A DNA stretch of 55,532 nucleotides from an uncultured Ruminococcus sp. (GTDB lineage: Bacteria; Bacillota; Clostridia; Oscillospirales; Ruminococcaceae), in NCBI GenBank assembly GCA_964501705.1, contig CAZCUQ010000002.1:1-55532 (forward strand). Reading direction: 5' to 3'. Made by a program: the position numbers and the translations under genes. Below the pieces are notes generated by a model, which worked only from the letters and a program-made list of their open reading frames with translations, was not told where the DNA came from and made no database searches. Below, piece after piece: positions 11,009 through 27,156 of the stretch; the first letter of the stretch is position 1, and the number at the start of each line of letters is the position of its first letter.

Positions 11009-11018
11009 AGGCAAGCTC

Positions 11019-11939
11019 CTAAACTACTGTAACAGTATATTTATCGATCATTTTACAGGGACGAAGCAGAGTTTTGTCATTTTTAAGTCCCGCAACTCCT
11101 ATATCCTCACCAAGATTTATAAAGTCAACATTTTTATGTTCAATTGCCATCTGTCTGTTCAGCCAATATGTAAGTCCTCTTATCCTTTCGGCATTTTTCT
11201 GAAAATAATAACACATAGTGTTATCATTGATCTTTTCACATACCGCGAAGGATAAGGGCTTGTTTCCGTCGTATGAAACCGAGATCCTGTGTCTGTCGGG
11301 GACGTATATCTCCATAAATCTCCTAAACGCATTTTTTTCGCACCCATAAAAACAGTTTTCACATTTATGGACATCGCACCATTTATCAAAAATGCTCATA
11401 CAGTCGGAATATTTGTCGGGAGTATATTTTTCACATTTTAATTCGGGATAATGAGCTGTAATGTAATTATATCCCCCTCGTTTTGTTTTATTTGACGTAC
11501 CTGCCATAGATAAAAAAGCATCTGTGTCATAAAGATAATCGCTGAATTTTTCATCAAATGTTATTTTGGCAGAATAACCGTTTTCAATTATCAGATCCCG
11601 ATAAATTTCTGTTTCACTAAGATCAACATATTCAAAAAGCGGCTTAATATTATTTGAACGGCAATATCCGATAACAGCGTTGATTGCCTCGCACAATGCT
11701 TCATTGCTTTTGCTGAGGATACAAAAGCCCCTTCTGCTGTCAACACCGATTCCCGTGACAGCAATCGCATCTCTCAGCAAAGCATACCTGTAATTAAACC
11801 TTTCACCCCACGCATAGAACATAGAGAATGTAGTATCTCCGCAGAAATTATCATTCCTGTATTCTCTGAAATATTCATATGCCGTGCTGTCAAAAGCATT
11901 GAAATCGACAGCTGACGGGGAAAGCAAAGAAACAGCCAT
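11019..11939 (-). CDS. DUF2156-type protein (fold of the MprF aminoacyl-phosphatidylglycerol synthase C-terminal domain)
   Basis: ATG at 11939. Pattern CGDTTFSMFYAWGERF ... DYLYDTDAFLSMAGTSNKTKRGGYNY matches what I recall of DUF2156 proteins (D-x-S/T-F-x3-Y-x-W ... DYxY ... G-x4-KR-x2-N). Confidence 0.55.
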   Translation of the reverse strand: MAVSLLSPSAVDFNAFDSTAYEYFREYRNDNFCGDTTFSMFYAWGERFNYRYALLRDAIAVTGIGVDSRRGFCILSKSNEALCEAINAVIGYCRSNNIKPLFEYVDLSETEIYRDLIIENGYSAKITFDEKFSDYLYDTDAFLSMAGTSNKTKRGGYNYITAHYPELKCEKYTPDKYSDCMSIFDKWCDVHKCENCFYGCEKNAFRRFMEIYVPDRHRISVSYDGNKPLSFAVCEKINDNTMCYYFQKNAERIRGLTYWLNRQMAIEHKNVDFINLGEDIGVAGLKNDKTLLRPCKMIDKYTVTVV

Positions 11940-12006: not shown

Positions 12007-13404
12007 TTATCCTTCATCCATAATCGACTTAATATTTTCCTCATAACTATCCTTAAAAAAGCTGCACGCCATCGGATCCTTTTCAAAATATCCGCCGCAG
12101 GCAAGCGCATTTGCACGGCAGCCCGAGCAGCGGTATCTGTTTTCACAGGCAGCACATTCGGAATTATTTTTAAAAAGCTCTTTATATGTGTAAGAACAAT
12201 AGGTGTCGATTGGCGACACGCTGAGAGCTTTTTCAAGGCTTTGCCCTTCATCGAAAATATTCGGCGCTATGTTTTCCATAGAAGAACCACTCATTGCAAT
12301 ACACGGCAGCAGCCGTCCATCAGGAAGAAGATATGGAAAAACACGAACCGTTTCACAAAGATAATCAGATTCCCTTTCGCAGCTCCCGCAGCCTGACACA
12401 AAAGGTATATACCACTTTTCCGAATTATTTTTGAAGCCCTGAAAAAATCCGCCTAATCCAAGACGCAAAGGCATACCCTCGTTCTTGTATATTTTGATAA
12501 GCTTAATATATTCATCGAAAACCGCGGAATAATTTATGCCTCTGTCCGATTGACCCCGCCAGTTTCCCGTATCGACAATCGGCACTGCCTTCCAGTGCAT
12601 TACTCCAAGCTCCTTCATAAGTTCATATGTATCAATAAGCGAACCGATATTTCCGTTATGAAGAGAGGTTGAAACCGTAACTTCATATCCGCGGCTTCGT
12701 ATAAGTTTTATTGCGGCGACAGCCTTCTTTTCAGCGCCCTTAACTCCTCTGAGCCAGTCGTGACAGTTTACGCCGTCAAAGCTGAGCATAAAACAATTAG
12801 GATGAAGATCACGGCTTTGAAATTCGTCCATAAACTTTTCATCGACAGCAATACCATTGGTAAACACCTGAAGCAGTGTGATATGGTTTTCCGAAAGCAT
12901 ATCAACTATCTTCCAGAAATCCTTCCGAACAAGCGGTTCGCCGCCTGTAAGCGCAACCATATCAACGTTAGCTTCCCTGCACTGTCTTATGACTTCTCTG
13001 CATTTTTCAAGAGAAACCTCACCGTATTTGTTTTCATCAGAAGAGATATAGCAATGTCTGCACCGAAGATTACAGTTTCCTGTAACAGACCAAAGCATCG
13101 TGTGGGTGTATTTTGCCTCGGTATATCGGTATTTCTGATAATCCTCAAGTTTTTTATCCCTGCCGCACTCAACGAGAAAGCCTTTTGCGGCGGCAAGCTC
13201 TGTCATTTTCCTCAGCTTTTTCGGAATCAAAGGCTCGTCTGCCGATACTCCGCCTGCTGTAAGAAGCTCCAATGCCTCAAACTGCAATTGAGTAAGAATG
13301 AGAACACGGTCACGGATATTTTTACATTCAAGATCCACCACCGCATACTTTATATCTTTCCAGCCTCTCAGCGCATATTGGGGTTTAAGAGTAAAATACC
13401 GCAT
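12007..13404 (-). CDS. Radical SAM / SPASM-domain peptide maturase with N-terminal RRE-like region
   Basis: AGGAGAG RBS. CNLRCRHC (Cx3Cx2C) and TGGEPL SAM motifs. C-terminal Cys clusters CGSCERESDYLC ... PC and CAACENRYRCSGCRANALACGG. About 95 aa precede the rSAM core. Confidence 0.85.
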   Translation of the reverse strand: MRYFTLKPQYALRGWKDIKYAVVDLECKNIRDRVLILTQLQFEALELLTAGGVSADEPLIPKKLRKMTELAAAKGFLVECGRDKKLEDYQKYRYTEAKYTHTMLWSVTGNCNLRCRHCYISSDENKYGEVSLEKCREVIRQCREANVDMVALTGGEPLVRKDFWKIVDMLSENHITLLQVFTNGIAVDEKFMDEFQSRDLHPNCFMLSFDGVNCHDWLRGVKGAEKKAVAAIKLIRSRGYEVTVSTSLHNGNIGSLIDTYELMKELGVMHWKAVPIVDTGNWRGQSDRGINYSAVFDEYIKLIKIYKNEGMPLRLGLGGFFQGFKNNSEKWYIPFVSGCGSCERESDYLCETVRVFPYLLPDGRLLPCIAMSGSSMENIAPNIFDEGQSLEKALSVSPIDTYCSYTYKELFKNNSECAACENRYRCSGCRANALACGGYFEKDPMACSFFKDSYEENIKSIMDEG

Positions 13405-13577: not shown

Positions 13578-13877
13578 TTAAAGATTTACATTAAGATTGC
13601 CTACTCCGTTGCCGCATACAACATCTCCGGTATGACCCTTACCGCCTGCTACAGAATCAAGGTCATCCTCATCAAGCTCCGTGTTGTCACCGTTCAGATA
13701 TGCCTTTGCTTCCTCAATGGTAATGTCGAAGCCAAGCTTCTTTGCAAGCACGCCAATCTTTGCGAGCTGCTCATCGGAAGCCTCTTCAAACTTTTTATCA
13801 CCAAGAATAGTGATAAGCTCCTTCTTTGCCGCGTCATCCGCAACAGCCTTTGCGTAGAATTCAGTTACCTTACTCAT
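13578..13877 (-). CDS. RiPP precursor D, Nif11-type leader (99 aa); core KGHTGDVVCGNGVGNLNVNL
   Basis: AAGGAGG RBS. Leader MSKVTEFYAKAV ... SDEQLAKIGVLAKKLGFDITIEEAKAYL ... LDEDDLDSVAGG has the Nif11 leader pattern with a double-Gly cleavage motif. Confidence 0.85.
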   Translation of the reverse strand: MSKVTEFYAKAVADDAAKKELITILGDKKFEEASDEQLAKIGVLAKKLGFDITIEEAKAYLNGDNTELDEDDLDSVAGGKGHTGDVVCGNGVGNLNVNL

Positions 13878-13952: not shown

Positions 13953-14279
13953 TTATTCGGATATGAGGGGTCCGGACTCGCTTACTTCCGGTTTGCCGCC
14001 TACCTGGCAAACAATTATTTTTGTTTCGTAATGATCCCCCTTGCCGCCGGCAACAGCATCGAGGTCGTCATCATTGAGAGCAGCCTCTTCAGGGTCAAGA
14101 AATTCCCTTGCCTCACTGACTGTAATGCTATATCCAAGTTCCCCGGCAATCACGCTCAGTGCTTCAAGCTGTTCATCGGAAGCGTTTTCCATTGTTTTGC
14201 CGTTAAGTATATCGGCAGCTCTTTTCCGTGTGCTTTCATCTGAAATAAGTTTTTCATAAAAATCGCAGAATTTGCTCAC
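13953..14279 (-). CDS. RiPP precursor C, Nif11-type leader (108 aa, GTG start); core KGDHYETKIIVCQVGGKPEVSESGPLISE
   Basis: GTG at 14279 is preceded by GGAGAGGAG. From that codon the product (M)SKFCDFYEKLI... aligns with the other three leaders. The ORF-track extension to 14453 overlaps precursor B out of frame. Confidence 0.8.
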   Translation of the reverse strand: MSKFCDFYEKLISDESTRKRAADILNGKTMENASDEQLEALSVIAGELGYSITVSEAREFLDPEEAALNDDDLDAVAGGKGDHYETKIIVCQVGGKPEVSESGPLISE

Positions 14280-14301
14280 AATTCCATCTCCTCTCCGAAT
14301 T

Positions 14302-14640
14302 TCAATAGGCAGGGTGAACGGTAGGCTCGTTATTGTTATCATCATATCCTGCCTGTCCGCCGACTTCGCATACATGAATCTCGGTATAATGGGTCTGATT
14401 CTTTCCTCCGGCAGCGGCATCAAGGTCGTCATCATCAAGCTCCGCAAAGTCATTATTCAGATATTCTCTTGCCTCATCAGCGGTAATATCGAAGCCGAGC
14501 TTCTTTGCGAGTATGCCTATTTTTTCGATCTGCTCATCGGATACATTTTGTATCTCTGTTCCGTTCAGTATATCGGCAAGTTCTTTGTTTGCAGCCGAAT
14601 CCGAAATTGCCTTGCTGTAAAAATCCGTAATTTTGCTCAT
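14302..14640 (-). CDS. RiPP precursor B, Nif11-type leader (112 aa); core KNQTHYTEIHVCEVGGQAGYDDNNNEPTVHPAY
   Basis: CAGGAGG RBS. Leader MSKITDFYSKAI ... SDEQIEKIGILAKKLGFDITADEAREYL ... LDDDDLDAAAGG. Confidence 0.85.
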   Translation of the reverse strand: MSKITDFYSKAISDSAANKELADILNGTEIQNVSDEQIEKIGILAKKLGFDITADEAREYLNNDFAELDDDDLDAAAGGKNQTHYTEIHVCEVGGQAGYDDNNNEPTVHPAY

Positions 14641-14669: not shown

Positions 14670-14999
14670 TTAAGATTGGGTAACGCCGCCGCCGTTTGAA
14701 CCATTACATTCAAATTTCAATGTATCGCCTCTGTATAAAGATATACGCGATGAGTTTCCCTTTCCGCCTGCGACAGCATCAAGGTCATCATCATCAAGCT
14801 CTGTATCATCACCGCGCAGATACGCCTTTGCTTCTTCAACGGTAATGTCAAATCCCATCTGCTTTGCGATTTCTCCGATCCTTTCAAGCTGTTCATCGGC
14901 TGCCTGCGCAATATCAGAGCCATCGAGTATTTTGCCAAGCTCTGCATTCTTTTCACTGTCTGCAAGTACCGCAGAATAAAAATCATTGATCTTACTCAT
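14670..14999 (-). CDS. RiPP precursor A, Nif11-type leader (109 aa); core KGNSSRISLYRGDTLKFECNGSNGGGVTQS
   Basis: ATG at 14999 (AAAGGTG upstream) gives MSKINDFYSAVL..., collinear with the paralogues. The ORF-track start at 15050 overlaps the upstream gene. Confidence 0.85.
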   Translation of the reverse strand: MSKINDFYSAVLADSEKNAELGKILDGSDIAQAADEQLERIGEIAKQMGFDITVEEAKAYLRGDDTELDDDDLDAVAGGKGNSSRISLYRGDTLKFECNGSNGGGVTQS

Positions 15000-15015
15000 C
15001 TGAAATTCACCTTTC

Positions 15016-15756
15016 TTACTTTTTGTTAATGCTGCTCTGTCCCGAAGCATCTTCCTTGACGGAAGAAGGATTTCCCGAATAGTTAATGGTACTCATACCC
15101 GAGGCTTCTGCGTCAAGCTCATTTTTCGCATAGACCTCCGCTGAAGATGTTCCCGAAACAGATACCTTTACATTGCCCGCCTCAGCATCGGCGGCATTAA
15201 GCTTCGATACACCGGAAATATCATACGAAGCCAGGTCGCAGCTTCCCTTAACGCTTACAACGGAAGCTCCTTCAGCCGATACATTTATTTCCGTAACCTC
15301 CTCGGGAATTGTATAATCAGTCTGAACACTTCCGCTTACATTGACAGAGGAAACCTTTGCGCCAATAGTAAGCGTGTAATTCATATTTTCATACATTACT
15401 CCCGATCTGCCCGACAAAATGATTTTTTGGCCCGCTTCGTCAACAGATAATGTCAGATCATCACATACATTATCATCAGCCTCTATTTTTGATTCGGACG
15501 CGGAAGGATCGATAATCACCTTGATATTTGAGTTGCTGTTGCTTATAGTGCCTGTGGAGAAGCTGTAAATGCCATCGGGAACAGAAACGCTTTTTTCTGT
15601 CATTGAACCGCTGCCCTTGATAATTTCAGAAAACTCTTCATCATTCATATCAATCACAACAGAATCGGAATATGTATCCTCTTCTCCGCAAGCAGTAAAT
15701 GCTCCGAGAATTGCCGCCGCGGATAAAATCACCGCGGCCGCTTTCTTTTTTTTCAT
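15016..15756 (-). CDS. Lipoprotein with DUF2807/GIN-type beta-helical repeat domain
   Basis: I prefer the ATG at 15756 (AAAGGTGGGG 5 nt upstream). Signal plus lipobox-like AFTAC. Repeated S/T-G-x-S/V strands (VSGSVQT, SAEGASVV, ISGVSKL, VSGTSSAEV, YSGNPSSV, ASGQSSI). Confidence 0.6.
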   Translation of the reverse strand: MKKKKAAAVILSAAAILGAFTACGEEDTYSDSVVIDMNDEEFSEIIKGSGSMTEKSVSVPDGIYSFSTGTISNSNSNIKVIIDPSASESKIEADDNVCDDLTLSVDEAGQKIILSGRSGVMYENMNYTLTIGAKVSSVNVSGSVQTDYTIPEEVTEINVSAEGASVVSVKGSCDLASYDISGVSKLNAADAEAGNVKVSVSGTSSAEVYAKNELDAEASGMSTINYSGNPSSVKEDASGQSSINKK

Positions 15757-15779
15757 AATAACCCCACCTTTCATATTAT

Positions 15780-16517
15780 TTAAGCGGTAAGCCCGCCATC
15801 TATGATAAATGTCTGTCCCGTAATATAGACCGACTTATCGCTTGCAAGGAATACACAAAGCTCCGCAACCTCCGAGGGCTTTCCAAAACGTCCCAAAGGA
15901 ATTTCGGCAATGCACTTGTTTTTGTATTCATCATCAAATCCCGCTGTCATAGCCGTTTCGATATATCCCGGAGCAACAGCGTTTACCCTGATATTTTTTG
16001 AAGCCAATTCAAGAGCGGCAGCTTTTGTAATGCCTATAATACCCGCCTTGGAAGCACAGTAGCTGCTCTGACCCGCACCGCCCTTAACACCGAAAACAGA
16101 ACTGATGTTAATTACCGAACCGTGCTTTTGTGACATCATCGGAATCGCTGCGGCCTGCATTGCGGCAAAAACAGCGGACAGATTGCAGTTTATCACATTG
16201 TCCCAGTTTTCTTTTCCGGCTGAAAACAGCAGTTCGGGACAAGCTATTCCCGCCGCGTTGATAAGCGCGTCTATTCCGCCCATAGCTTTTATCTGCTTTT
16301 TTATTGACGGAGATATGCTGTCCCTGTCGGAAAGATCAAGACAGAATGGAAACAGCTTATCGGGAAATTCCTCCGAAAGCTCTTCAATAGCAGCCGAACC
16401 GTTTCTGTATGATCCCGATACGACCGCTCCCTCTCTGATACATTCGGCGGCACAGGCAAGACCTATCCCGCCCGAAGCACCTGTTATTATCACTTTTTTT
16501 CCTTCAAGAATACCCAT
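15780..16517 (-). CDS. SDR-family 3-oxoacyl-ACP reductase (FabG-like), cluster-specific
   Basis: TGASGGIGLA (TGxxxGxG) and YCASKAG (YxxxK). The ATG abuts the upstream stop. Confidence 0.8.
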   Translation of the reverse strand: MGILEGKKVIITGASGGIGLACAAECIREGAVVSGSYRNGSAAIEELSEEFPDKLFPFCLDLSDRDSISPSIKKQIKAMGGIDALINAAGIACPELLFSAGKENWDNVINCNLSAVFAAMQAAAIPMMSQKHGSVINISSVFGVKGGAGQSSYCASKAGIIGITKAAALELASKNIRVNAVAPGYIETAMTAGFDDEYKNKCIAEIPLGRFGKPSEVAELCVFLASDKSVYITGQTFIIDGGLTA

Positions 16518-17546
16518 CTAACACGCCTCCGACAGCATACAGCAGTAATTCCCCGCTGTGTCTGTACCCGTTACAAGAATGGTTTTAACGCTGTCAAGCG
16601 ACTTATCCGCAAAATTATCGGACACCTTGCCTGTTTTTAACACCGCAGCGGCAAGAGCGGCACTCAACATATATCCGCTGCCGAGAGTTTCGCCAAACAG
16701 CCGTTTGGGATAAGCATATACCGTTCTGTTCTCAAATACGCTGTCCATTGCTTCTTTTTCTATGCTGTCGAAGTATGTCCCGTTTGCCGCTGTGAACACC
16801 GCATCGGGAACTTTATCGCCGCAAATCTCTGATACAGCTTTAGCAATAAGCTTTGAGCATTGTTTATCGGCCGAAGCTGTCAAGGGATAAACGGGAAGCA
16901 GCGCCGATGAAAAATCCGATACCTTGCAGTATGTGTTCAAGCTCTTTTCGGCTCTGACCGTAAAAACTGCAGTACCCTCCGAAATGTCGCTGCCCGCGGC
17001 CGTTTTGAGGGTTTTGATTGAATCAAACAGCTCCCCTGAATACTCCTCCACAGAACCGCACAGGATAACGTCCGCCTTTTTGCCGCTCAGAAGAAGCGAG
17101 GTATACTCCAAAGGGTCGCCGCCCATAAGAACGGTACTGACACCCTTATAGCCGTTTACAATACATATCTGACCGACGCAGGAATTCGGAACGGTTCCCG
17201 AAAACACTGTAGGACTGCACAGCGCGGGATTTCCCCTTGCCACCGAATCGGAAAACCGAATGTTGCTTTCCGCAGCGCCGAAGCCTGTTGAAATTATCGT
17301 CCCGACTCTTGTTACGTCAATATCATCGGGGTATTTTCCGTCAATCCTTGCAAAATCGGCAGCGGCGACAGCGAGCTTACTGTATCTGCTGCATCTTCTC
17401 AGTTTTGAGGACGGTACGTTCGACGTAAATTCCGGTCTGCCGCCGTTTATTTCGGGGATTTTGCCCTCGGCGATCTTCATAAGCTCAGCAGCGGACATCG
17501 CACATCGGGAGATAATTCCGATCCCGTCAATATATACGGGCTTCAT
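16518..17546 (-). CDS. Beta-ketoacyl synthase-like protein (chain-length-factor type partner of the KS)
   Basis: Thiolase-fold KS N-terminal-like sequence (YIDGIGIISRCA ... VPNSCVGQICIVNGYKG ... VILCGSVEEYS), only 342 aa and without the C-H-H triad motifs. TAATG overlap with the KS gene. Confidence 0.6.
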   Translation of the reverse strand: MKPVYIDGIGIISRCAMSAAELMKIAEGKIPEINGGRPEFTSNVPSSKLRRCSRYSKLAVAAADFARIDGKYPDDIDVTRVGTIISTGFGAAESNIRFSDSVARGNPALCSPTVFSGTVPNSCVGQICIVNGYKGVSTVLMGGDPLEYTSLLLSGKKADVILCGSVEEYSGELFDSIKTLKTAAGSDISEGTAVFTVRAEKSLNTYCKVSDFSSALLPVYPLTASADKQCSKLIAKAVSEICGDKVPDAVFTAANGTYFDSIEKEAMDSVFENRTVYAYPKRLFGETLGSGYMLSAALAAAVLKTGKVSDNFADKSLDSVKTILVTGTDTAGNYCCMLSEAC

Positions 17547-18736
17547 TACGCTTCACCTCCGCTGTATTTTTTTACAAGAACACTTGCGCTGTTTCCCGCA
17601 AAAGCGAAGCTGTCGGAAATGGCACAGTTTATATCCATATCACGATTTTTAAGGATAATATACACATTATCCGCTCCCATGACAGGTTCTGTCAGATTTG
17701 GCATAATTATCGCCTTATTGTACTTCATAGACAGAATAACGCTGATAAGCTCTGCCGCACCCGAAGCACCCATACAATGTCCGATAAGCGCCTTGGTGGA
17801 TGATAACGCAGGCTTTTTTGCGCTGCCTTTATATATCCTGTTTATAGCCTTTATTTCCATACTGTCGTTTATTGCGGTGCCCGTACCGTGACCGTTTATG
17901 TAATCGACCTCGTCAATGTCGGTACTGCCATCGGAAAGTGCGGAAAGCATTGTGCGGTATGCTCCGCTTCCGTCAGGCTCGGGGCTTGTAATATGGTACG
18001 CATCGTTGCCGATACTGTAGCCCGCTATCTCACAATAGATATTTGCATTTCTTTTCAGGGCGTGTTCAATGGATTCAAACATAAGAAATGCGCCGCATTC
18101 GCCGATATTTATGCCGTCACGTTTTTCATCGTAAGGATTGCAGGTACCGCTGCTCAGTGATTTCAGCGCATTAAATCCATACGCCGCAACTATTGTCAAA
18201 GGATCTGCACCGCCCACAACAGCCATATCGCATATACCGTTTCTTATGTAATCGAGTGCCATCCCCGCCGCAGTAGTTCCCGAAGCGCAGGCGGCGGATG
18301 AAACACTTGCTCCGCCTTTTACACCCGTAAGCTCTTTGATGTATGAAATATAGTCATTCATTCCGGCAAGAGTTCCGTCTGATGGCTTGCCGTCTGCTTT
18401 GTTAATGCTGTGCTTATAATAGGAGCCTGTATTTGAAAGGAGCGTTCCGTAAAAAAGGCGGCAATTTTTGCCCTCGGACGAAAGCGTTTCCCTGTCAAGC
18501 CCGCAGTCGGAAAGCATTTCGGCGCAGGATTTTTTGATAAGTATGCGAAGCCTTGCGTCAGTGTCCCTTTCGTCAATATCCGCTTCACCGAAATATTCGG
18601 TAAGAAGCCCATCGGTACTGAAAGCAGTGCATTTTTTTATACCGCTTATTCCCTCCGAACAAGCTTTGATAAATTCCGACTTATTATTTGCATTTCCGCA
18701 GACGATTCCCATTCCCGTAACAACGACTTTTTTCAT
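17546..18736 (-). CDS. Beta-ketoacyl-ACP synthase II-type condensing enzyme (FabF-like)
   Basis: I prefer the ATG at 18736 (MKKVVVTGMGIV) over the TTG at 18742. Active-site motifs SAACASG, NGHGTGT and GHCMGASG. Confidence 0.85.
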   Translation of the reverse strand: MKKVVVTGMGIVCGNANNKSEFIKACSEGISGIKKCTAFSTDGLLTEYFGEADIDERDTDARLRILIKKSCAEMLSDCGLDRETLSSEGKNCRLFYGTLLSNTGSYYKHSINKADGKPSDGTLAGMNDYISYIKELTGVKGGASVSSAACASGTTAAGMALDYIRNGICDMAVVGGADPLTIVAAYGFNALKSLSSGTCNPYDEKRDGINIGECGAFLMFESIEHALKRNANIYCEIAGYSIGNDAYHITSPEPDGSGAYRTMLSALSDGSTDIDEVDYINGHGTGTAINDSMEIKAINRIYKGSAKKPALSSTKALIGHCMGASGAAELISVILSMKYNKAIIMPNLTEPVMGADNVYIILKNRDMDINCAISDSFAFAGNSASVLVKKYSGGEA

Positions 18737-18738
18737 AA

Positions 18739-19005
18739 TCAACCCTCATGTGTCCGGATATATTCCGCAATGTTATTTACGGAACTGAGCAGGCGCATAT
18801 CTTCGGAAGGCACATCAATCCCCCAGGTATCATAAATCATAACCGCCAGCTCAAGAGCGTCAACGGAATCCAGTCCCATAGTTACCTCATCACCGCTTCC
18901 CGATCCGAAAACAGGTGAATCATATGTAAATCCTTCAATTTCCGTGGTGTCAACGTCCATAGTTTCAATAATTTTTTCAAAAATCAAGTTTTCAATAGTT
19001 TCCAT
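18739..19005 (-). CDS. Acyl carrier protein (non-housekeeping type)
   Basis: 88 aa, GGAGG RBS. Phosphopantetheine site GLDSVDALEL in the helix II context. Confidence 0.8.
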   Translation of the reverse strand: METIENLIFEKIIETMDVDTTEIEGFTYDSPVFGSGSGDEVTMGLDSVDALELAVMIYDTWGIDVPSEDMRLLSSVNNIAEYIRTHEG

Positions 19006-19018
19006 AGAGAATCCTCCG

Positions 19019-19903
19019 TTAATGCAGTATATAGTTTATTGAGCATTTTACCGATGATGTAACTATTCCAAGCAGTTTTTTTTGAAATTTATTTGCCCTG
19101 TCATTGTTTTCATACATAGCATAAACTGCCCGCTTGCAGTCAAAGGTCTTGAACATTTCCATTGACCCCGCAAAGGCAAGAAGAATACAGCCGCTTCCCA
19201 GATACCTTTCAGACGCGGAAATATGCTCAAAAACAGCACTGCTTTTATCGGGAGTGCTTACCAGCGTATAAGCGGCAAGCTCATTTTCCCTGAAAACGGC
19301 ATAGCTCATTTTTCTGCTGAGATACCTGTTCGGATCGTCGAAAAAAGGCTTCACATCAAGCTCATTCCGAAAATTGTTTTCGCCTGACAGATAAATATCT
19401 GAAATACGCTTCTCCGGCAGATCCGCAAAGCTGACCTTTGAAAATCCCTGACGGTTAAGCATATTGCAAAGCTTTCCGCCCGTGTCTGCCATATATTCCT
19501 CCCAGCGGATAAAATCCTCCGATTTTCCGCTGAAAACATTGCAGACCGAGCCTTTTTCAAAACCGCATTTCAGGCAAGCTCTTGATACCGCCGCAAAATA
19601 TCGGTGTTTCTCGGTAATACCGACTCTTACGGGCTTCGGCATATTTTCTGCCGCAAAGCTAAGGAGAGCTGAAAATACTCCTTTTTCTCTCTCGGTTTCA
19701 ATTGTATATCCATAAAGCAGCCTCGTAAATCCGCTGTCAGCCGACAGGCATACATAGCCGACTGCCTGTCCGTTTTCCCACAGCATATATATCCTGCCGC
19801 CTGTTGATAAAGCGCTCTTTGCCGAAATATCCGAAAGCCGGCTTCTGCTTTCGCCGAAAAGGAAAATGTAATCTGTAAAAGTCGCTTCGGCTATTTTACG
19901 CAT
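19019..19903 (-). CDS. Tandem GNAT-like acyltransferase (candidate peptide N-acyltransferase)
   Basis: Two halves each resemble a GNAT core (ENGQAVGYVCL ... ETEREKGVFSALLSFA; ENELAAYTLV ... SERYLGSGCILLAF). By-eye assignment. 8-nt overlap with the upstream gene. Confidence 0.45.
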   Translation of the reverse strand: MRKIAEATFTDYIFLFGESRSRLSDISAKSALSTGGRIYMLWENGQAVGYVCLSADSGFTRLLYGYTIETEREKGVFSALLSFAAENMPKPVRVGITEKHRYFAAVSRACLKCGFEKGSVCNVFSGKSEDFIRWEEYMADTGGKLCNMLNRQGFSKVSFADLPEKRISDIYLSGENNFRNELDVKPFFDDPNRYLSRKMSYAVFRENELAAYTLVSTPDKSSAVFEHISASERYLGSGCILLAFAGSMEMFKTFDCKRAVYAMYENNDRANKFQKKLLGIVTSSVKCSINYILH

Positions 19904-20744
19904 ATTTACACATTCCTTCCAACCCGATTTCGCAAAGATATTTTACCCGTTCATCACGGGACATTTTTTTGAATTCATCGCTGACGGCAAACGCTTCGAG
20001 ATATTCGGAAGCGCTTACTGCCGTTTCGGAAACCGCTTTTCCCACCTTGTCGGAAAGACCCACGGTGTAAAATTTCAGCCTGCCGCCGCTTGTACCCGTA
20101 ATTCCCATAAATCTTAGAAAATGCTCGGCTTTATAATATCCGAACGCTTCATACAGTCCGAAAAAATCAGCCATTATCTCATCGTGCAGACGATTTTGCG
20201 AAAGACCGTATTTCTGTTTGGTGAAATAGTGGGTACACTCGTGCTCACGTCGAATTATCATTGACCTTTCGGACCATTCTTCTTCCGAAAGTCCCATCTC
20301 GGAAGCGGGGACATTGCTGTAAGGCTTTGCGGACAGAATAATAAATCTTGTGGATTTTCCGAACGCGAAGGATGCTCCCGTTTCGGAAAGACCGTCGGGA
20401 CGGATTCCCTTGTATATCGCATTTGTGACCAACGCTTCAAAGTCATTTTTATCGGACAGATAAATGATCGGTATCTCCCCCGCAAAGGAATTGTAAATTT
20501 CAAGTCTTATCCTTTCGGGTGATCTGAAATCAACAGGCCGCTTCGGGCATACATATCCGTTTATCGCCTCCGCTGCGCCGCGATCGGCAGCGACAGAAGC
20601 TATATTCCGCCATTTTTCAAGAAATGCCGTATCATACGCGATATTTTCAGTGCAGTCTGCAAACCCGTTTGATATGTATTCTCTGTACTCCTTCTCTTCA
20701 TCGGAAGAAAGAGCGTATTTGGCTATAATTTCGTTTATTGTCAA
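19896..20744 (-). CDS. Uncharacterised protein with HExxH motif (putative metallopeptidase)
   Basis: HECTH at ...IIRREHECTHYFTKQ..., followed by LHDEIMADFFG. I prefer the TTG at 20744 (GGAGGTG 5 nt upstream) over the ORF-track TTG at 20789, which overlaps the ABC gene. Confidence 0.5.
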   Translation of the reverse strand: MTINEIIAKYALSSDEEKEYREYISNGFADCTENIAYDTAFLEKWRNIASVAADRGAAEAINGYVCPKRPVDFRSPERIRLEIYNSFAGEIPIIYLSDKNDFEALVTNAIYKGIRPDGLSETGASFAFGKSTRFIILSAKPYSNVPASEMGLSEEEWSERSMIIRREHECTHYFTKQKYGLSQNRLHDEIMADFFGLYEAFGYYKAEHFLRFMGITGTSGGRLKFYTVGLSDKVGKAVSETAVSASEYLEAFAVSDEFKKMSRDERVKYLCEIGLEGMCKYA

Positions 20745-20766
20745 GCTAACACCTCCGATAGCGGCA

Positions 20767-22929
20767 TCAGACCATCTGTCTGCTTGCAAGCTCCGCGAAT
20801 TTTCCGTTTAATGCCATAAGCTCGTCAAATGTCCCCTGTTCAACAACCTGTCCCTTATCAAGGTAGATTATTCTGGAGCAGTTCTTTATGGTTGAAAGTC
20901 TGTGCGCGATAACTATTCTTGTACATTTCATTTCTTCGAGAGTGTTTACCACCATTGCCTGAGTAATGTTGTCAAGAGCAGATGTCGCTTCATCGAACAT
21001 TACAATATCGGGATCGGACGCAAGCGCACGGGCAATCAGAAGCCTTTGCTGCTGACCGCCTGAAAGTCCTCCGCCGCCTTCCGAGATCATCGTAAACATT
21101 CCCATAGGCATTTTTTTTATGTCCTCGGCAAAGCCGGAACGTCTTGCAGCCTCCCACGCTTCATCCACAGTCAGCCAGGGAGCGGTTATTACGATGTTTG
21201 AGTAAATATCTCCGGAAAAAAGCTTTCCGTTTTGCAGAACAACACCTATCCTTCTTCTTACGCTTCTGAGGTCAAGCCCCTCTGCGTCCTGAGAATCATA
21301 ATAAACGCCGCCCGATTCGGGCTTTTCAAAACCTAAAAGAACTCTGAACAGCGTGGATTTTCCGCAGCCCGATGAGCCTACGATTCCCACATACTCCCCT
21401 GCTTTGATGTGCAGTTCCAAATCGTTCAGAACATATGGCATATCCTCGTTATAGCGGAATTTCACACGGTTCACTTCAATATCACCGCTGAGCTTGTCAA
21501 CACGTTTTTTATAACCCGAATTTTCAGGCTCTGCCTCAATAATCGGACGTATAATATCGAGTGCGGGACGAAGCGAAGCTACCTGTGTCGTAATATTCGC
21601 CATTGACATGACCGCACCTGTGAACAGCGCATACGCCGAGTTGAATGCAATATAATCCGACGCACTGAGCCCGTTTACATAAGCGGTATAATAAAGTACA
21701 ACTGTACCGCCGAACACCGCGAAATTTGAAAGCGCACCCGAAACAGCAAGGAATGTATGAGGCATAATGTGCAGCTTACTGTAAAGCTCTGCCCACTTGG
21801 AATATGCCCTTGTTTCCGCTCCCGACACCTTTATTTTGGTGATTCCGTTCAGAAGCTGAAATACGATACTCGAAAGCTTTCCGTTAATTTCATTGTTCTC
21901 CTTAGTCTGCTTTATCTGAACAAGTGCTGTGATAACATATATCGCAACCATCAGCAGCACAATGATGAGCGAAGGAAGAAACATTTCGGGAGATATTGAG
22001 CTTATCTGAAACAGATAAACAAAGGAGAATACCGAAGCAAGCAGCGTAGGCACAAGCTGTCCGCCGAGAATCCCGCATATCTGATTTATCGAGGCTGCCC
22101 GCTGGGTAAGATCGCCCGAATCATATTTTTTGAAAAAGTCCACAGGAAGACTCATAAGCCTTGCCCATACCGCATTTTGCGCAAGAAGCTCCAGCTTGTT
22201 TCCGATACGCATTACCCATACAGTACGGGATAGTTCGAATAAAGCCGTCACCACAACCGTACCGACAATAAGTACGCTTATGCCGAATATCTCCTCTGAC
22301 GTACCCGAAGGAACTACTGTGTTAAACACAAATTTATTTATCGCAGGCATTATCATTCCGACGAGACCCGCAACAAGACTTATTGCAAGCAGGCAGACAA
22401 CATCAGCGGCCGAAAATGCGCCTGTAAGGAACTTGTAAAATTCCCCCATAGTGAGCTTTCTGTTTTCAAAGGGCTTGTAAAAGCAGTAGGCAACCGGAGA
22501 AAATTCCTTTGCGCGCTTCTCGTTAAGCTTAACTTTGTTTCCGTTGTCATCAAAAAAATAATATCCGCCCTGAATTGAAGGGATCAAAGCACATGAAGAG
22601 CCGTCTTTCAATGTACAGAGAAGGGGCATTGAGCCGTCCTTCCACCACTTTCCGACAGTGACGATCTTTCTGCGCATTACACCCGTTTCGGTCATAGCAA
22701 ACTGCATTACGCTTTCGGGATCTGATAATCCCGACGGAAATGAAAGGATATCCGTTTTGAGAAAGCTGCATATTCTTATCATTTCAAGAGCTGTGCGGCT
22801 CAGGGCATTTCCCGAGGACTTTGCCGCCGACGCACTGCCAAGGGAGGTGTATACGCTTTCAGCGGAGCTTTTCAGTGTCTGTGCATCAAGCTGTTTTTTA
22901 AGCTTTACTCTTTCGGAAAAAGTGTACAT
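20767..22929 (-). CDS. NHLP/Nif11-type bacteriocin export ABC transporter, second subunit (no catalytic peptidase Cys seen)
   Basis: I prefer the ATG at 22929 (GAGGTGA 6 nt upstream). Six-TM exporter domain, Walker A GSSGCGKST, signature LSGGQQQR, Walker B MFDEATS. Confidence 0.8.
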   Translation of the reverse strand: MYTFSERVKLKKQLDAQTLKSSAESVYTSLGSASAAKSSGNALSRTALEMIRICSFLKTDILSFPSGLSDPESVMQFAMTETGVMRRKIVTVGKWWKDGSMPLLCTLKDGSSCALIPSIQGGYYFFDDNGNKVKLNEKRAKEFSPVAYCFYKPFENRKLTMGEFYKFLTGAFSAADVVCLLAISLVAGLVGMIMPAINKFVFNTVVPSGTSEEIFGISVLIVGTVVVTALFELSRTVWVMRIGNKLELLAQNAVWARLMSLPVDFFKKYDSGDLTQRAASINQICGILGGQLVPTLLASVFSFVYLFQISSISPEMFLPSLIIVLLMVAIYVITALVQIKQTKENNEINGKLSSIVFQLLNGITKIKVSGAETRAYSKWAELYSKLHIMPHTFLAVSGALSNFAVFGGTVVLYYTAYVNGLSASDYIAFNSAYALFTGAVMSMANITTQVASLRPALDIIRPIIEAEPENSGYKKRVDKLSGDIEVNRVKFRYNEDMPYVLNDLELHIKAGEYVGIVGSSGCGKSTLFRVLLGFEKPESGGVYYDSQDAEGLDLRSVRRRIGVVLQNGKLFSGDIYSNIVITAPWLTVDEAWEAARRSGFAEDIKKMPMGMFTMISEGGGGLSGGQQQRLLIARALASDPDIVMFDEATSALDNITQAMVVNTLEEMKCTRIVIAHRLSTIKNCSRIIYLDKGQVVEQGTFDELMALNGKFAELASRQMV

Positions 22930-22943
22930 ATTTTTCACCTCGG

Positions 22944-25091
22944 TTATTCACTCTTGACAAGAGCCGCATATTTTCCGTTCTTTGCAATCAGTTCGGAATG
23001 TGTTCCCCGTTCTGTTTCCCTGCCGTATTCAAGCATTATTATTTCATCGGCGTCACGGATAGTTGAAAGTCTGTGCGCAATTACAAAGCAGGTCATACCT
23101 CTGCGTTTTACGGCATCCATTACAAGCTTTTCCGTTGTGGGGTCAAGAGCGGAGGTTGCCTCATCGAGAATAATTACAGACGGGTGCGCCGCAAACGCTC
23201 TCGCAATTTCCAGACGCTGCCTCTGACCGCCCGAGAAATTTCCGCCGCCTTCCGCTATCACAGAATCGTAGCCGTCCTTCAGCGCCATAATATCATTATG
23301 TATGCAGGCGTCCTTGCAGGCTTCGATAATTACCTCCTCGGGGATTGTGCTGTCCCACATAGTAATATTATCCCTGATAGTTCCGCTGAAAAGGGATATA
23401 CTCTGGTCAACCACAGCCACCGAGCTTGTGAAAACATAACGATCGATATCCCTGATAGGCTTGCCGTCAAAAAGCAGTTCGCCGCTTCTTTGAGGGAAAA
23501 GCCCGGAAATAACCTTTGCAAGTGTGGATTTACCGCTTCCGCTTCCGCCTACAAGAGCAATCATACTGCCCTTTTTTGCCTTCAGATTAAAATTTTCGAT
23601 AAGCGCGGGTGCAAGGGAGCTGTAGCCGAAGCTGATATTTTTCAGTTCGACCTCACCGCTGAGTTTTTCATATTCGCCTTCGGCAATGCTCGGGTCAAAA
23701 TCAACATCGGTTTTATAGTTCATAACGTCCTCGACCCGCTCCATACTTCCGCTCATATCCTGGAATACCTGAATAGAGTTGACAAGAGAACTGACAGGAG
23801 AAAGGAAGAGCGTCATAAAGCTCTGGAAAGCCATCAGCGAGCCGATGGTAAATTCTCCGTTAAAGATATTGTACACACCTATCATAAGAACCGTTCCCGT
23901 ACTGAGTCCCGAAAGGATCTGCGGGGCAATGCTTATCATAGTGTTTCTTCTGCGAAGCTCCAGCATTGCGTTATTATACTTGGTCTGGTAGCCTGAGATC
24001 TTCTCAAAAAAGCCTGTTTCCGAGCCGCTGGCTTTAATGGTTTCGATCATAGAAACGGCAGCTATCATAATACCCGAAAGCTTTCCGCTATCACGCTGGA
24101 TAGACTTTGCCGCGTTGGTATTCTGCTTGGAAACCATTCTCATAATGATAATGTTTATCACCGCGACCGCAATGCCGATAAGCGACATTGCGGCACTATA
24201 GTATATCATAACCGCAAGATAAACACCTATCATAATGACATTCAGGATAACAGGAGCAAGCTGTGTGCAGAGTGCGTAAGCGATCTCGTTATTGCTCTGC
24301 TGTCTTGAGGAAATATCACCCGCAAATCTCTGAGAGAAAAACTCCGCAGGCAGTCTGAGAACGTGCCACATAAACGCAGAGGACGAACCGATACTCATTT
24401 TTGACTGAAGCTTTGCAAGATAAATACCCCTTAGCATTTCGGCAACAAAACCGATAACTAAAGATATTCCCATAGCAAGCAGAAGCGGCTGCATTTTATC
24501 CGCCGCACCGCCTATCAGCACATCATCGGTAAACATTTTGTAAAACACGGGACGAACAAGACCTATCACAGACAGAATAAGTCCCATTGTCAGAATGAAG
24601 ACCAGCAGCGCACCGCTGCCGTCAAGCCGCTTTTTAACAAATGCCATAACGCTCTTAGGCTTTCCCGACGGCGCAAAGCTTTCGGAGGGTTTGAATTTTA
24701 ACGCAATACCCGTAAACGAACGGTCAAATTCCTCCATATCCACCAAAACACGACCGCCTGCGGGATCATTGATAACAGCCTTATTTCCTTTAAAACCGCA
24801 AAGCACGACAAAGTGATTGAAATTCCAATGAATTATCATCGGGAAATCGGTCTGTTCCTTTATTTTTTCAATGCTCATACGAAAGCCCTTTGCCTCAAGA
24901 CCGTGATGCCTTGCGGCAAGGCTTATATATTTGGCTGTACTGCCGTCCCTGGAAACGTTACAGTCGGAACGGAGCTGTTCCAGCGGGATATATTTTTTAT
25001 AGTACGCAAGTATCATTGCAAGTGAAGCGGCGCCGCATTCAAGCGCTTCCATCTGCAATATTACAGGCACTTTTTTTGCAGTATTCTTCAT
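22944..25091 (-). CDS. Bacteriocin-processing ABC transporter with N-terminal C39 peptidase domain
   Basis: AAGGAGG RBS. C39 motifs LQMEALECGAASLAMIL (Cys) and NHFVVLCG (His). Walker A GGSGSGKST, signature FSGGQRQR, Walker B ILDEATS. Confidence 0.9.
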   Translation of the reverse strand: MKNTAKKVPVILQMEALECGAASLAMILAYYKKYIPLEQLRSDCNVSRDGSTAKYISLAARHHGLEAKGFRMSIEKIKEQTDFPMIIHWNFNHFVVLCGFKGNKAVINDPAGGRVLVDMEEFDRSFTGIALKFKPSESFAPSGKPKSVMAFVKKRLDGSGALLVFILTMGLILSVIGLVRPVFYKMFTDDVLIGGAADKMQPLLLAMGISLVIGFVAEMLRGIYLAKLQSKMSIGSSSAFMWHVLRLPAEFFSQRFAGDISSRQQSNNEIAYALCTQLAPVILNVIMIGVYLAVMIYYSAAMSLIGIAVAVINIIIMRMVSKQNTNAAKSIQRDSGKLSGIMIAAVSMIETIKASGSETGFFEKISGYQTKYNNAMLELRRRNTMISIAPQILSGLSTGTVLMIGVYNIFNGEFTIGSLMAFQSFMTLFLSPVSSLVNSIQVFQDMSGSMERVEDVMNYKTDVDFDPSIAEGEYEKLSGEVELKNISFGYSSLAPALIENFNLKAKKGSMIALVGGSGSGKSTLAKVISGLFPQRSGELLFDGKPIRDIDRYVFTSSVAVVDQSISLFSGTIRDNITMWDSTIPEEVIIEACKDACIHNDIMALKDGYDSVIAEGGGNFSGGQRQRLEIARAFAAHPSVIILDEATSALDPTTEKLVMDAVKRRGMTCFVIAHRLSTIRDADEIIMLEYGRETERGTHSELIAKNGKYAALVKSE

Positions 25092-25102: not shown

Positions 25103-26014
25103 TTATGATACAAGAAGCTCAACAGGAAGATACTCGCTTGTCACAACTATGATTGAACACTGCGTTCCAAGCTCAACAGGAAGGTTTTCTCCTTTACTGT
25201 TTGACCATTTATATGAATTGCCTGAATTTTCATCGAGATCCAATCTGATTCTTATTTCCACAAATGAACCTTCGGGAAGTATATTTTCCACATAAGAAAG
25301 AGTACCCATCTTTGAGATAATACTTTCCTCCGAAACCGGCGTTTCGGATATTGAAGTGATAATACCCGTCATATATCCGTATTCCTCTCTTGCGGCATAA
25401 GAAGGAGACACCTGTGCCGTCATACCGAGGCTGAGAGAATTCGCGGTCTGCATAGGTACATAAGCAACTACCTCATTATATCCGCTGTCAGACATTACAG
25501 ACGATATTGTGTCGCCTGCTTCTATCGCACTTCCGCAGGGCTTTACAGACTGAATATATCCCGAACTGCTGCTTTTTATGACTGTTGTGGCGACATAAGT
25601 GTCAACAAGCTCTTCTATTCTGTTTTCAAGATTTATATATTCATCGCTGCCGTTTTCAAGCGCTGCCAGCTCATAGCGATAAGCGTCAATTTTATCCAGC
25701 AGTTCATTATTTGATACGACCGCGATTATATCTCCAATGTTGACATAATCGCCGCTGCTTACGAGAACATCTGTGACTACGCAGCTTCTGTCTGCTGTGC
25801 TGCTTAAAATATTGTTATTTGTAAAAACAACGCCCTTAATATTCACTCCGTTTGTGATTTTATATGTAACGCTCCAAACAATAAATGTAATAAGTGCTGT
25901 CACAAGTGCCATATAAATTATCCAGACAGACGGGCGCATTATCTTTACCTGCTTATCAAGCTGCTCGGGAGTAGCCATTGTATCAAGAGCGGTTTTTCTG
26001 AATAGTTCTGCCAT
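25103..26014 (-). CDS. HlyD-family secretion adaptor of the bacteriocin export system
   Basis: N-terminal FRKTALDTMATPEQLD, then a single TM, then a barrel-sandwich/lipoyl-like region (GDYVNIGDIIAVV ... AGDTISSV). Confidence 0.7.
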   Translation of the reverse strand: MAELFRKTALDTMATPEQLDKQVKIMRPSVWIIYMALVTALITFIVWSVTYKITNGVNIKGVVFTNNNILSSTADRSCVVTDVLVSSGDYVNIGDIIAVVSNNELLDKIDAYRYELAALENGSDEYINLENRIEELVDTYVATTVIKSSSSGYIQSVKPCGSAIEAGDTISSVMSDSGYNEVVAYVPMQTANSLSLGMTAQVSPSYAAREEYGYMTGIITSISETPVSEESIISKMGTLSYVENILPEGSFVEIRIRLDLDENSGNSYKWSNSKGENLPVELGTQCSIIVVTSEYLPVELLVS

Positions 26015-26034: not shown

Positions 26035-27156
26035 TCATTCCGTACGGAATGCGCCTTCTGAAAATACAAGAATATCATCACCTGACGGAATAAGCGAACC
26101 ATCCTCGGTGTATGTGACCTTGCCCCGCAGCCCGTCATAGCCATCTGCCGATTTCAGCATATCCATAAGTGCGGCAGAATCGGAAACGCCCGAGTTCAGA
26201 GCACTGCTCATCATATAAATAAGGTCATAGGACTGAACTGCCCTTTCGTGCATTTCCAATCCGTATTCAGCCTTAAACCTTTCGGAAACTTCATAATATG
26301 AATCACCTTCGCCTGTAAGATAAAGAGGAACAATAACAGTTCCGTCCATATATTCGCCGTTTTGCGCGATATCATTATCGGTATCCATTACATAATCGGA
26401 TACGACCTGAATATCAGAGCCTTTTTCCCGAAGCATTCTCACAAGGTCGCTGTTATAACTGTAATAGTTGCTCACGCAGACAACATCAATGCCAAGAGAA
26501 ACCCATCGGGCATAAGCAATGTCGAATTCCTCCTGCGTGTAGGGTCCGACAACGGTATCCGCAAGCGTAACGGAGGAATCCGATATTTTCGACTGAAAGC
26601 CTTTCAGCTCGTCCTCCTCATACTCCGTGTCGGAATGGCAGAAAGCAGCACGCCTGAAACCATTGTCTATAACATATTCACCCATTATGCTGCCTGCCGC
26701 CTTTGCATTGATAAAGTCAACGAGAAGATAGTCATAGCCTTTTTCTATGGTATGATTATAGCAGCCGTTTGTAATAATAAATGGCTTGCCGGCGGCTTCA
26801 TAAATGTCCGCAACGGTGTCAACGTAATCAATTTCCTGCTTGACTATAACAGCGGCAATATCGGTATCGGCGGCTATCTCATTGGCATAAGCAATTGCCT
26901 TATGATAATCCGCGTCGTCATCATAGAAATTCACATTAACGGTAATGCCTGTCTTTGCCGAAAAATCCTTTGAAGCCATCTCCATTGCCTCTACAGTTCC
27001 GCCCTCATTATAAAACAAATCATCTCCGACAACAGCAATGGTGATAGCGTTATCACTTCCAACGGGCTTCCAAGTCTCAACAGCTTCATTACACGCCGAA
27101 AACAGCGATACAGTTATTATTGCTGCTGTAAAAGACATTGATTTTTTCATTTTCAT
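26035..27156 (-). CDS. Orphan lipoprotein of the type-1 periplasmic-binding-protein (Leu/Ile/Val-binding-like) fold; first gene of the train
   Basis: Signal plus LFSAC lipobox-like site. ITIAVVGDD ... NVNFYDDDADYHKAIAYANEI ... AAVIV ... PFIITNG resembles PBP1 solute-binding proteins. No permease or ATPase partner is adjacent. Confidence 0.55.
   Translation of the reverse strand: MKMKKSMSFTAAIITVSLFSACNEAVETWKPVGSDNAITIAVVGDDLFYNEGGTVEAMEMASKDFSAKTGITVNVNFYDDDADYHKAIAYANEIAADTDIAAVIVKQEIDYVDTVADIYEAAGKPFIITNGCYNHTIEKGYDYLLVDFINAKAAGSIMGEYVIDNGFRRAAFCHSDTEYEEDELKGFQSKISDSSVTLADTVVGPYTQEEFDIAYARWVSLGIDVVCVSNYYSYNSDLVRMLREKGSDIQVVSDYVMDTDNDIAQNGEYMDGTVIVPLYLTGEGDSYYEVSERFKAEYGLEMHERAVQSYDLIYMMSSALNSGVSDSAALMDMLKSADGYDGLRGKVTYTEDGSLIPSGDDILVFSEGAFRTE

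Follow-up and report, generated by a model that had tools for sequence, protein, structure and literature searches.

A stretch of 55,532 nt from an uncultured Ruminococcus sp. (contig CAZCUQ010000002.1, analysed over its whole length and hereafter called the window) carries a cassette of five genes, which encode a protein with two GNAT acyltransferase lobes, an acyl carrier protein (ACP), a ketosynthase (KS), a KS-like partner and a ketoreductase (KR). The cassette is probably the lipid-building and lipid-attaching module of a gene cluster for a ribosomal lipopeptide, that is, a ribosomally made, post-translationally modified peptide (RiPP). It had previously been interpreted, from the sequence alone, as an acyl-chain set whose product the GNAT hands to a peptide, and this interpretation was supported, none of the computational checks named with it and run here speaking against it; its inferred parts are the 3-hydroxy or 3-keto stop, the acyl-ACP donor and the steps borrowed from primary fatty acid synthesis (FAS). 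The connection of the cassette and the GNAT to a RiPP was borne out by four precursors with Nif11-type leaders ending in Gly-Gly, a radical S-adenosylmethionine (SAM) enzyme, exporters of the NHLM type, a conserved synteny, a lysine close to the cleavage site and a distant homology, covering both lobes, to the peptide acyltransferase NpuN.

The cassette and its RiPP cluster

All the genes of the cassette lie on the minus strand and are transcribed from high to low coordinates, with the GNAT gene first. This gene (19019-19903) encodes a tandem, two-lobed GNAT of 294 aa, a predicted peptide N-acyltransferase recognized by the Pfam model Acetyltransf_1 (27.3 bits, cutoff 20.7). It is followed by the genes for a dedicated ACP of 88 aa (18739-19005, PP-binding, 28.8 bits, with the motif GLDSVDALEL and Ser47 in DSV), a KS with both ketoacyl-synthase domains and the triad Cys152, His285 and His322 (17546-18742), a KS-like partner of 342 aa resembling a chain-length factor (CLF), without the Cys-His-His triad and with a weak FabF sequence similarity of 40 bits (16518-17546), and a FabG-like 3-ketoacyl reductase of the short-chain dehydrogenase/reductase (SDR) type (15780-16517, adh_short_C2, 214.6 bits). 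The original prediction had recognized each of these proteins, including the intact triad of the KS and its loss in the partner; it had also rightly placed the GNAT gene directly before the others in transcription, while its heading, according to which the GNAT followed them, did not hold.

The junctions between these genes are tight. The stop of an upstream gene encoding a DUF7005 protein overlaps the GNAT start by 8 nt, a 13-nt spacer carrying GGAGG separates the GNAT and ACP genes, the KS and KS-like genes overlap by 1 nt (TAATG), and the KS-like and KR genes abut with a 0-nt gap. Between the ACP and KS genes there is either a 4-nt overlap or, with the ATG at 18736 that is probably the true KS start, a 2-nt gap. 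Such junctions are consistent with translational coupling, as had been proposed. Furthermore, Pfam scans of about 49 open reading frames (ORFs) over the whole window found no FabD, FabH, FabZ/A, FabI/K or acc gene, so that the claim that the gene train holds no malonyl transferase, dehydratase, enoyl reductase, FabH or acc gene was confirmed and extended to the window. LanM, LanB and LanC domains were likewise found in none of the scanned ORFs, the radical SAM enzyme being there instead.

The KS-like partner was modelled with 59 homologues, and the suggested structural comparison with CLFs turned out favourably: the model (pLDDT, the predicted local distance difference test, of 96.3) adopts a thiolase fold with template-modelling (TM) scores of 0.75-0.85 to FabF, to the KS/CLF pairs of actinorhodin (1tqy) and ishigamide (6kxd) and to the AntD/E KS-CLF complex (6smo). 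In particular, the shorter chains of 6smo, of about 350 residues, gave the best size-normalised match (target-normalised TM 0.75-0.78). Its catalytic positions are taken by Asp/Asn144, Asn255 and Glu286; whether residue 144 or a deletion of its loop is seen varies with the alignment. Across the 59 homologues these replacements of Cys-His-His were kept in 54-59 sequences, position 144, where aligned, being Asp in 47 and Asn in 12, and Gln in none. Because the replacements are conserved among homologues, the protein is read as a selected non-catalytic partner and not as a decaying gene; on the model, it is a catalytically dead, CLF-like partner of thiolase fold. The window therefore holds a triad-bearing KS, an adjacent partner of KS fold in which the catalytic Cys is absent, and a discrete ACP, the set that defines type II KS/CLF systems. 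Although the canonical active-site Cys is missing, three other cysteines of the partner (C110, C123 and C128, in the segment LCSPTVFSGTVPNSCVGQICI) are invariant or nearly so in the 59 homologues. Moreover, in one KS-like homologue of 537 aa (P0107) the protein is fused to an SDR/KR domain, which hints that the KS-like protein and the KR may act together.

The curated NCBIfam models placed the cassette apart from housekeeping enzymes. FabF was the top match of the KS, and yet the score stayed below the FabF equivalog cutoff (TIGR03150, 263.7 vs. 493.75), as did those of the ACP for AcpP (TIGR00517, 27.2 vs. 70.45) and of the KR for FabG (TIGR01830, 261.4 vs. 297.75), the latter exceeding only the cutoff of a FabG subfamily (NF009466, 226.8 vs. 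222). With the KS and ACP below these cutoffs, on an island bearing an integrase and with a patchy taxonomy, it is unlikely, judging from these comparisons, that the KS and ACP are the sole FAS of the organism, a case in which the original prediction would have failed.

The cassette is placed between an exporter and the precursors in a tightly packed, co-directional gene string. The four precursors are paralogous, with Nif11-like leaders of about 79 aa that end in (A/V)(A/V)GG, so that all of them present a Nif11/NHLP-type leader with a Gly-Gly cleavage motif; the leader score (TIGR03798, 31.6 bits) is just below the 32.3 cutoff. On the minus strand, precursor 1 (14670-14999) has a leader ending in DDDLDAVAGG and the core KGNSSRISLYRGDTLKFECNGSNGGGVTQS, precursor 2 (14302-14640) a leader ending in AAGG and the core KNQTHYTEIHVCEVGGQAGYDDNNNEPTVHPAY, precursor 3 (13953-14279) the core KGDHYETKIIVCQVGGKPEVSESGPLISE and a GTG start at 14279 preceded by GGAGAGGAG, and precursor 4 (13578-13877) the core KGHTGDVVCGNGVGNLNVNL. 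The mechanically called ORFs 13953-14453 and 14670-15050 (minus strand) overcall two of them; the true starts were taken to be GTG 14279 and ATG 14999 because of leader homology and upstream ribosome-binding sites, and the latter gives precursor 1 a leader of 79 aa, matching its paralogues. Next to them, a radical SAM peptide maturase of the SPASM type (12007-13404, minus strand) is 48-69% identical to its counterparts in related loci. The export system is complete at the level of equivalogs, all on the minus strand: an NHLP-family ATP-binding cassette (ABC) transporter with a C39 double-glycine peptidase domain (ABC1, 22944-25091; TIGR03796, 945 bits, cutoff 853.3; Peptidase_C39), an NHLP bacteriocin export ABC permease/ATPase (ABC2, 20767-22938; TIGR03797, 739.5 bits, cutoff 709.4) and an NHLP bacteriocin secretion protein of the HlyD type (25103-26014; TIGR03794, 166.8 bits, cutoff 156.2).

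The tandem GNAT and the acceptor lysine

The 294-aa protein was submitted to structure prediction, a check on which the original prediction had made its GNAT assignment depend, and the fold was recovered. The AlphaFold2 model, built from an alignment of 36 homologues (pLDDT 91.7, predicted TM score 0.83), consists of two consecutive GNAT lobes linked via a long helix, the two lobes in one chain of about 300 aa that characterize tandem GNAT proteins. Its top matches in the PDB (Foldseek) were tandem GNATs, with E-values of 1e-14 to 1e-10, and included MAB_4324 (7q3a), a tandem GNAT of the clavulanate pathway (2wpw/2wpx), VipF, a Clostridium glucosamine N-acetyltransferase and MshD; for 7q3a and 2wpw, the E-values were about 1e-14 to 2e-14 and the TM scores 0.64-0.67. 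The C-lobe carries a canonical pyrophosphate-binding P-loop (K/R-x-x-G-S-G) in which G238 is invariant and both G236 and S237 are almost so, and the N-lobe retains R72 and G75. Close relatives are scarce, with only 38 among 5.8 billion proteins, and a profile search extended the family to 272 clusters at 50% identity.

The gene contexts of the relatives were taken from assemblies, GTDB genomes and metagenome contigs. A GNAT-ACP-KS-KS-like set accompanied by Nif11 precursors, a radical SAM gene and two ABC genes was found in the loci L001-L010, L012-L015, L020 and L024, with GNAT identities of 27-48%. These loci come from Selenomonadaceae, Clostridia, Blautia, Lachnospiraceae and Synergistaceae of the rumen or gut, in a patchy distribution. 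The KS and KS-like genes strictly co-occurred, and in most loci the ACP gene was directly downstream of the GNAT gene. Furthermore, in three other loci (L016-L018) members of the GNAT family with 32-34% identity lie directly between a Nif11-like precursor with a GG|K junction and a radical SAM gene, and no ACP or KS was found on these contigs of about 3 kb. On the evidence of these short contigs, the GNAT appears to have the peptide as its target, and the ACP/KS cassette would be a clade-specific addition.

In the selidamides, a GNAT acylates the side chain of the most N-terminal Lys or ornithine (Orn) of an NHLP/Nif11 precursor, and NpuN does so on Lys1 of NpuA, the residue that immediately follows the Gly-Gly at the end of the 78-aa leader (PMC8784127, PMC13647313). 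NpuN is itself a tandem GNAT of 295 aa, as described by an AlphaFold3 model (PMC13060382). The sequences of NpuN and NosN were rebuilt from the supplementary alignment of that study (PMC13060382) and compared with a profile of 149 sequences of the GNAT family by hhalign; the alignment was colinear across both lobes, over 230 columns, with an E-value of 1.5e-13 and a probability of 98%. In contrast, the same profile aligned with the tandem GNAT VipF, used as a control, over 73 columns of one lobe (E-value 4e-6). Moreover, the pairwise alignment of one family member (P0210) with NpuN reached an E-value of 2e-8 and extended through the inter-lobe linker. As a working analogy, the comparison of the GNAT of the window with the selidamide GNATs is strong.

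The acceptor residue was sought in 24 distinct precursors from cassette-linked loci, whose sequences are related and do not count as independent trials. All 24 had a Lys within the first five core residues after the Gly-Gly, at position 1 in 14 of them and at position 2, 3 or 5 in the remaining ten, and the cores of the window all begin with Lys. At the other core positions Lys had a frequency of 0.061, from which 0.27 Lys per peptide would naively be expected in the first five. Otherwise, the cores are hypervariable and essentially unalignable, and the contrast between the fixed Lys and these cores is clear in the sequences compared. A Cys followed by a Gly within one to five residues was also present in 21 of the 24 cores, and this Cys-x(1-5)-Gly region is the likely target of the radical SAM enzyme.

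Proposed pathway and competing readings

In the favoured pathway, host enzymes would phosphopantetheinylate the dedicated ACP and load it with malonate. The KS and its inactive partner, acting as KS/CLF heterodimers do, would condense a primer with malonyl-ACP, and the KR would yield a 3-hydroxyacyl-ACP. With no dehydratase (DH) or enoyl reductase (ER) in the cluster, extension would probably stop early unless the host FabZ and FabI step in. The tandem GNAT would then move the acyl group from the ACP to the side chain of the lysine in a peptide that still bears its leader, in parallel with NpuN acting on Lys1 of NpuA; the radical SAM enzyme would cross-link the conserved Cys-x(1-5)-Gly region; and the C39 ABC exporter would cut the leader off and secrete the lipopeptide. 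Given a KR without DH or ER, the simplest product for this window is probably that of a single condensation ending at 3-hydroxyacyl-ACP; a polyol chain, or a longer chain to which FabZ and FabI of the host contribute, may be formed instead.

Several observations weigh against this pathway or parts of it. The close family of the GNAT (A1) matched NpuN poorly, with E-values of 0.013-0.014 and over the N-lobe alone, and a plain hidden Markov model (HMM) search scored NpuN (46.9 bits) and VipF (51.2 bits) alike, NosN reaching 53.5 bits. Because the close family is weak and the plain HMM does not discriminate, the specific link to NpuN rests on the profile-profile colinearity gained through distant members, and the GNAT of the window, though of the same size and tandem architecture, is no more than a possible member of the clade of KspN, PhaN and NpuN. 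As for the donor, NpuN used acyl-coenzyme A (CoA) in vitro (PMC13647313, PMC13060382), and we infer acyl-ACP instead of acyl-CoA for the GNAT of the window from a single feature, its adjacency to the dedicated ACP gene. The precursors of one locus (L011), for which there is no information on the cassette, have no early Lys. Furthermore, an end point at the 3-hydroxy stage would not be family-wide: L001, L009 and L014 have no KR, and a FabA/ApeI-like dehydratase is encoded in L003, L005 and L024, two of which (L003 and L005) also have a fused acetyl-CoA carboxylase carboxyltransferase. As the KR is missing from some loci and a dehydratase is present in others, the chain chemistry therefore varies within the family. 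Finally, the mechanism as a whole, with its putative chain identity and acceptor atom, is proposed from sequence, synteny and predicted structures.

The alternative that fares best, unlikely as it is, assumes N-terminal lipidation as in the goadvionins and lipoavitides: the leader would first be cut off inside the cell, possibly by the DUF7005 protein, and the GNAT would acylate the alpha-amine of core residue 1. This order of events is that of the known N-terminal GNAT lipidation of RiPPs, which comes after leader removal (PMC13647313), and the DUF7005 gene (19896-20789, minus strand) is a fitting candidate, being the gene that overlaps the GNAT start and that is fused to a tandem GNAT in a 600-aa protein (P0132). 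Its HExxH-type motif, HEC[TCA]H (HECTH at residue 183), is conserved in homologues down to 28% identity and suggests a zinc metallohydrolase. However, its protease activity is only putative, with no PDB sequence relative, NCBIfam model or literature found for DUF7005; the gene is absent from L001; and the cluster has its leader peptidase in the C39 domain of the exporter, with cleavage taking place during export. Moreover, acylation of the alpha-amine leaves the conservation of Lys unexplained, including the ten precursors that have it at position 2, 3 or 5.

The GNAT could also start the chain, in the manner of the GNAT-like loading domains of CurA and GphF, by decarboxylating an acyl group or loading it onto the ACP in place of the missing acyltransferase (AT) or FabH, while another enzyme, or none, joins the lipid to the peptide. 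We consider this improbable. The GNAT gene is indeed directly upstream of the ACP gene in a cluster without AT or FabH, GNAT-like decarboxylases acting on carrier proteins are established in CurA and GphF (PMC11685415), and two other genes of GNAT fold (11019-11939 and 7162-8034) could perform the peptide transfer. Nevertheless, these two genes are not kept across loci, the GNAT gene of L009 is separate from ACP-KS-KS-like, the relatives of L016-L018 stand beside precursors and radical SAM genes with no ACP or KS nearby, and the extended family is colinear with a peptide acyltransferase, NpuN.

A third possibility, very improbable in our view, is that the cassette and the GNAT make a separate small lipid, either an N-acyl amino acid as made by FeeM or a membrane lipid for immunity, and merely share an island with a radical SAM bacteriocin. 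N-acyl amino acid synthases of the FeeM type, which depend on a carrier protein, do exist (PMC11685415), genes resembling MprF are found on the island, and distant KS-like homologues occur in clusters resembling those of type II polyketide synthases (PKS) that make no RiPP (L022 and L023). In contrast, the cassette keeps its place between the exporter and the precursors, in a packed gene string, over a wide divergence, and a separate lipid leaves the conserved Lys beside the cleavage site unexplained. Hardly credible at all is a housekeeping FAS, with the FabF, AcpP and FabG of the organism beside a bacteriocin locus by chance, which was ruled out despite the KR passing NF009466 and FabF being the best KS match, on the curated cutoffs that the KS, ACP and KR all fail and on the genomic context: a dead partner KS, no fabD, fabH, fabZ, fabI/K or acc nearby in the 55.5-kb window, an integrase conserved at the island edge and a patchy occurrence across Clostridia, Selenomonadaceae and Synergistaceae.

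Lipidation has a strong influence on how potent peptide drugs are and on their pharmacology, and lipopeptides encoded by genes are in demand as alternatives to the non-ribosomal kind that lend themselves to engineering. RiPP lipidation is known in two forms, that of the selidamides, which draw on host fatty acids, and the actinobacterial routes of PKS or FabH type, which act at the N-terminus. The selidamide systems (kamptornamide, phaeornamide and nostolysamides, with the GNATs KspN, PhaN and NpuN) resemble the cluster of the window in their Nif11/NHLP-type leader ending in Gly-Gly and in a tandem GNAT of about 295 aa encoded beside the precursor, and their acceptor, the side chain of the N-terminal-most Lys or Orn, has its counterpart in the Lys with which the cores of the window start. 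However, selidamide clusters have no ACP, KS or KR and take the acyl group from host metabolism, while the window has its own set; their rings are lanthionines made by LanM, while the window encodes no lanthionine synthetase but a radical SAM enzyme; NpuN has its canonical P-loop in the N-lobe (PMC13060382), as against the C-lobe in the GNAT described here; and their hosts are cyanobacteria and proteobacteria, as opposed to anaerobic Firmicutes.

The goadvionins, lipolanthines and lipoavitides, for their part, share with the window a RiPP cluster with its own acyl-chain machinery and a GNAT that joins the chain to the peptide. The goadvionin donor is bound to a carrier protein (PMC8784127, PMC11685415), as is proposed here, and carrier-protein-dependent GNATs are established with GdvG/AprG of the goadvionins, FeeM and SbzI (PMC11685415). 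In contrast to the likely Lys side chain of the window, these actinobacterial lanthipeptides or aminovinylcysteine (AviCys) peptides are lipidated at the N-terminal alpha-amine after leader removal. Goadvionins and lipolanthines use machinery of the polyketide type, while lipoavitides use a FabH-type ketoacyl-ACP synthase III (KAS III) on CoA substrates and an acyltransferase that acts at the N-terminus (bioRxiv 10.1101/2023.10.25.564083); none of the three has the discrete pair of KS and dead KS with ACP and KR, the Nif11-type leaders and the radical SAM enzyme of the window. With respect to the type II KS/CLF systems (actinorhodin, AntD/E, ishigamide and aryl-polyene), the cassette has in common a KS followed by a coupled, Cys-less partner of thiolase fold, a discrete ACP and a KR. 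Unlike them, it has no dehydratase, cyclase, aromatase or thioesterase, and its output is proposed for a ribosomal peptide; moreover, the CLF of aromatic type II PKS has Gln in place of the active-site Cys, where the partner in the window has Asp/Asn at the position assigned to it.

Overall, the cluster is a new variant on the known RiPP lipopeptide systems, with its own KS set and a likely side-chain lipidation. In the searchable literature, no description was found of a RiPP cluster combining a KS/CLF-type pair, an ACP, a tandem GNAT and a radical SAM enzyme, nor anything specific on this architecture, on PDB 9S5H or on lipidated sactipeptides or ranthipeptides. There is about an even chance that a whole undescribed class of lipopeptides is represented in gut and rumen anaerobes, in which a radical SAM RiPP cluster with a minimal type II KS set (KS, dead KS and ACP, with or without KR, DH and carboxyltransferase) builds its own acyl-ACP, a tandem GNAT lipidates the Lys beside the cleavage site, and the presence of KR or DH tunes the lipid. 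If so, a compact cassette of four or five genes would be a portable means of setting the lipid identity independently of the host, the GNAT would be a candidate new carrier-protein-dependent tandem GNAT, the natural variants with or without KR or DH would form a ready-made structure series, and rumen and gut anaerobes would hold an unexplored lipopeptide chemistry.

Related pathways, neighbouring genes and repeats

The distant KS-like homologues of L022 and L023 (34-38% identity) belong to non-RiPP clusters with the order ACP-KS-(4HBT)-DH-KSL-KR, where KSL is the KS-like gene, together with genes for AMP-ligases, an asparagine synthase, BtrH_N proteins, an aminotransferase and an amine oxidase. 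Apparently, these are uncharacterised, highly reducing pathways of anaerobes resembling type II PKS. Because the distant homologues sit in ACP-KS-DH-KSL-KR clusters, a highly reducing type II module is the source of the RiPP-linked cassette, whose version in the window has no dehydratase. As a separate observation, L003 encodes at 16078-20852, downstream of five precursors, a second radical SAM enzyme, the FabA/ApeI-like dehydratase, a KR and the fused carboxyltransferase, and one of its five precursors has no Cys.

Directly downstream of the cassette, a gene for a DUF2807 protein (15016-15774, minus strand), also present in L002 and L003, encodes a signal peptide and a Cys, which makes its product a probable lipoprotein and a candidate for an immunity or accessory role. 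At the distal end of the cluster, three further genes on the minus strand encode a DUF2156/LPG_synthase_C-like protein with the fold of aminoacyl-tRNA-dependent transferases (11019-11939), a membrane protein of 1003 aa that is an MFS transporter in its C-terminal 400 aa and without any match in its N-terminal 600 aa (8003-11014), and a second GNAT of the Acetyltransf_9 family (7162-8034); the first two are syntenic in L002. These three genes (7162-11939) may confer an MprF-like immunity to a cationic lipopeptide or provide extra tailoring.

The upstream edge of the cluster is marked by a tyrosine integrase gene (27474-28595, minus strand), whose 65% identical counterpart occupies the same position in L002 (728-1828), and a gene for a periplasmic binding protein (26035-27156) is likewise conserved in that locus. 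From this arrangement the whole cluster looks like a mobile island. The remainder of the window is an ordinary chromosome of a spore-former, with SpoIIR, SpoIID and a PhoH-YbeY-DgkA-Era-RecO string.

Furthermore, a repeat of about 105 bp was present in four near-identical copies on the plus strand (2196-2300, 2728-2832, 28834-28938 and 40434-40538), two of which flank the RiPP island. Each copy is bounded by inverted repeats (TATAGTAAACGACAT ... ATGCCGTTGACTATA) and contains a palindrome (TTGACTTCAAGTCAA), and the element had no match in Rfam. Three copies are just 5′ of a plus-strand gene or of tRNA-Thr, and the copy at 28834 is intergenic, beside the integrase gene. The copies at 2728 and 28834 were considered as attachment (att) sites of the island, a role disfavoured by the four copies on the same strand, their placement upstream of genes or a tRNA, the inverted repeats and the palindrome; these features make a promoter/operator or an element resembling miniature inverted-repeat transposable elements (MITE) more likely than att sites.

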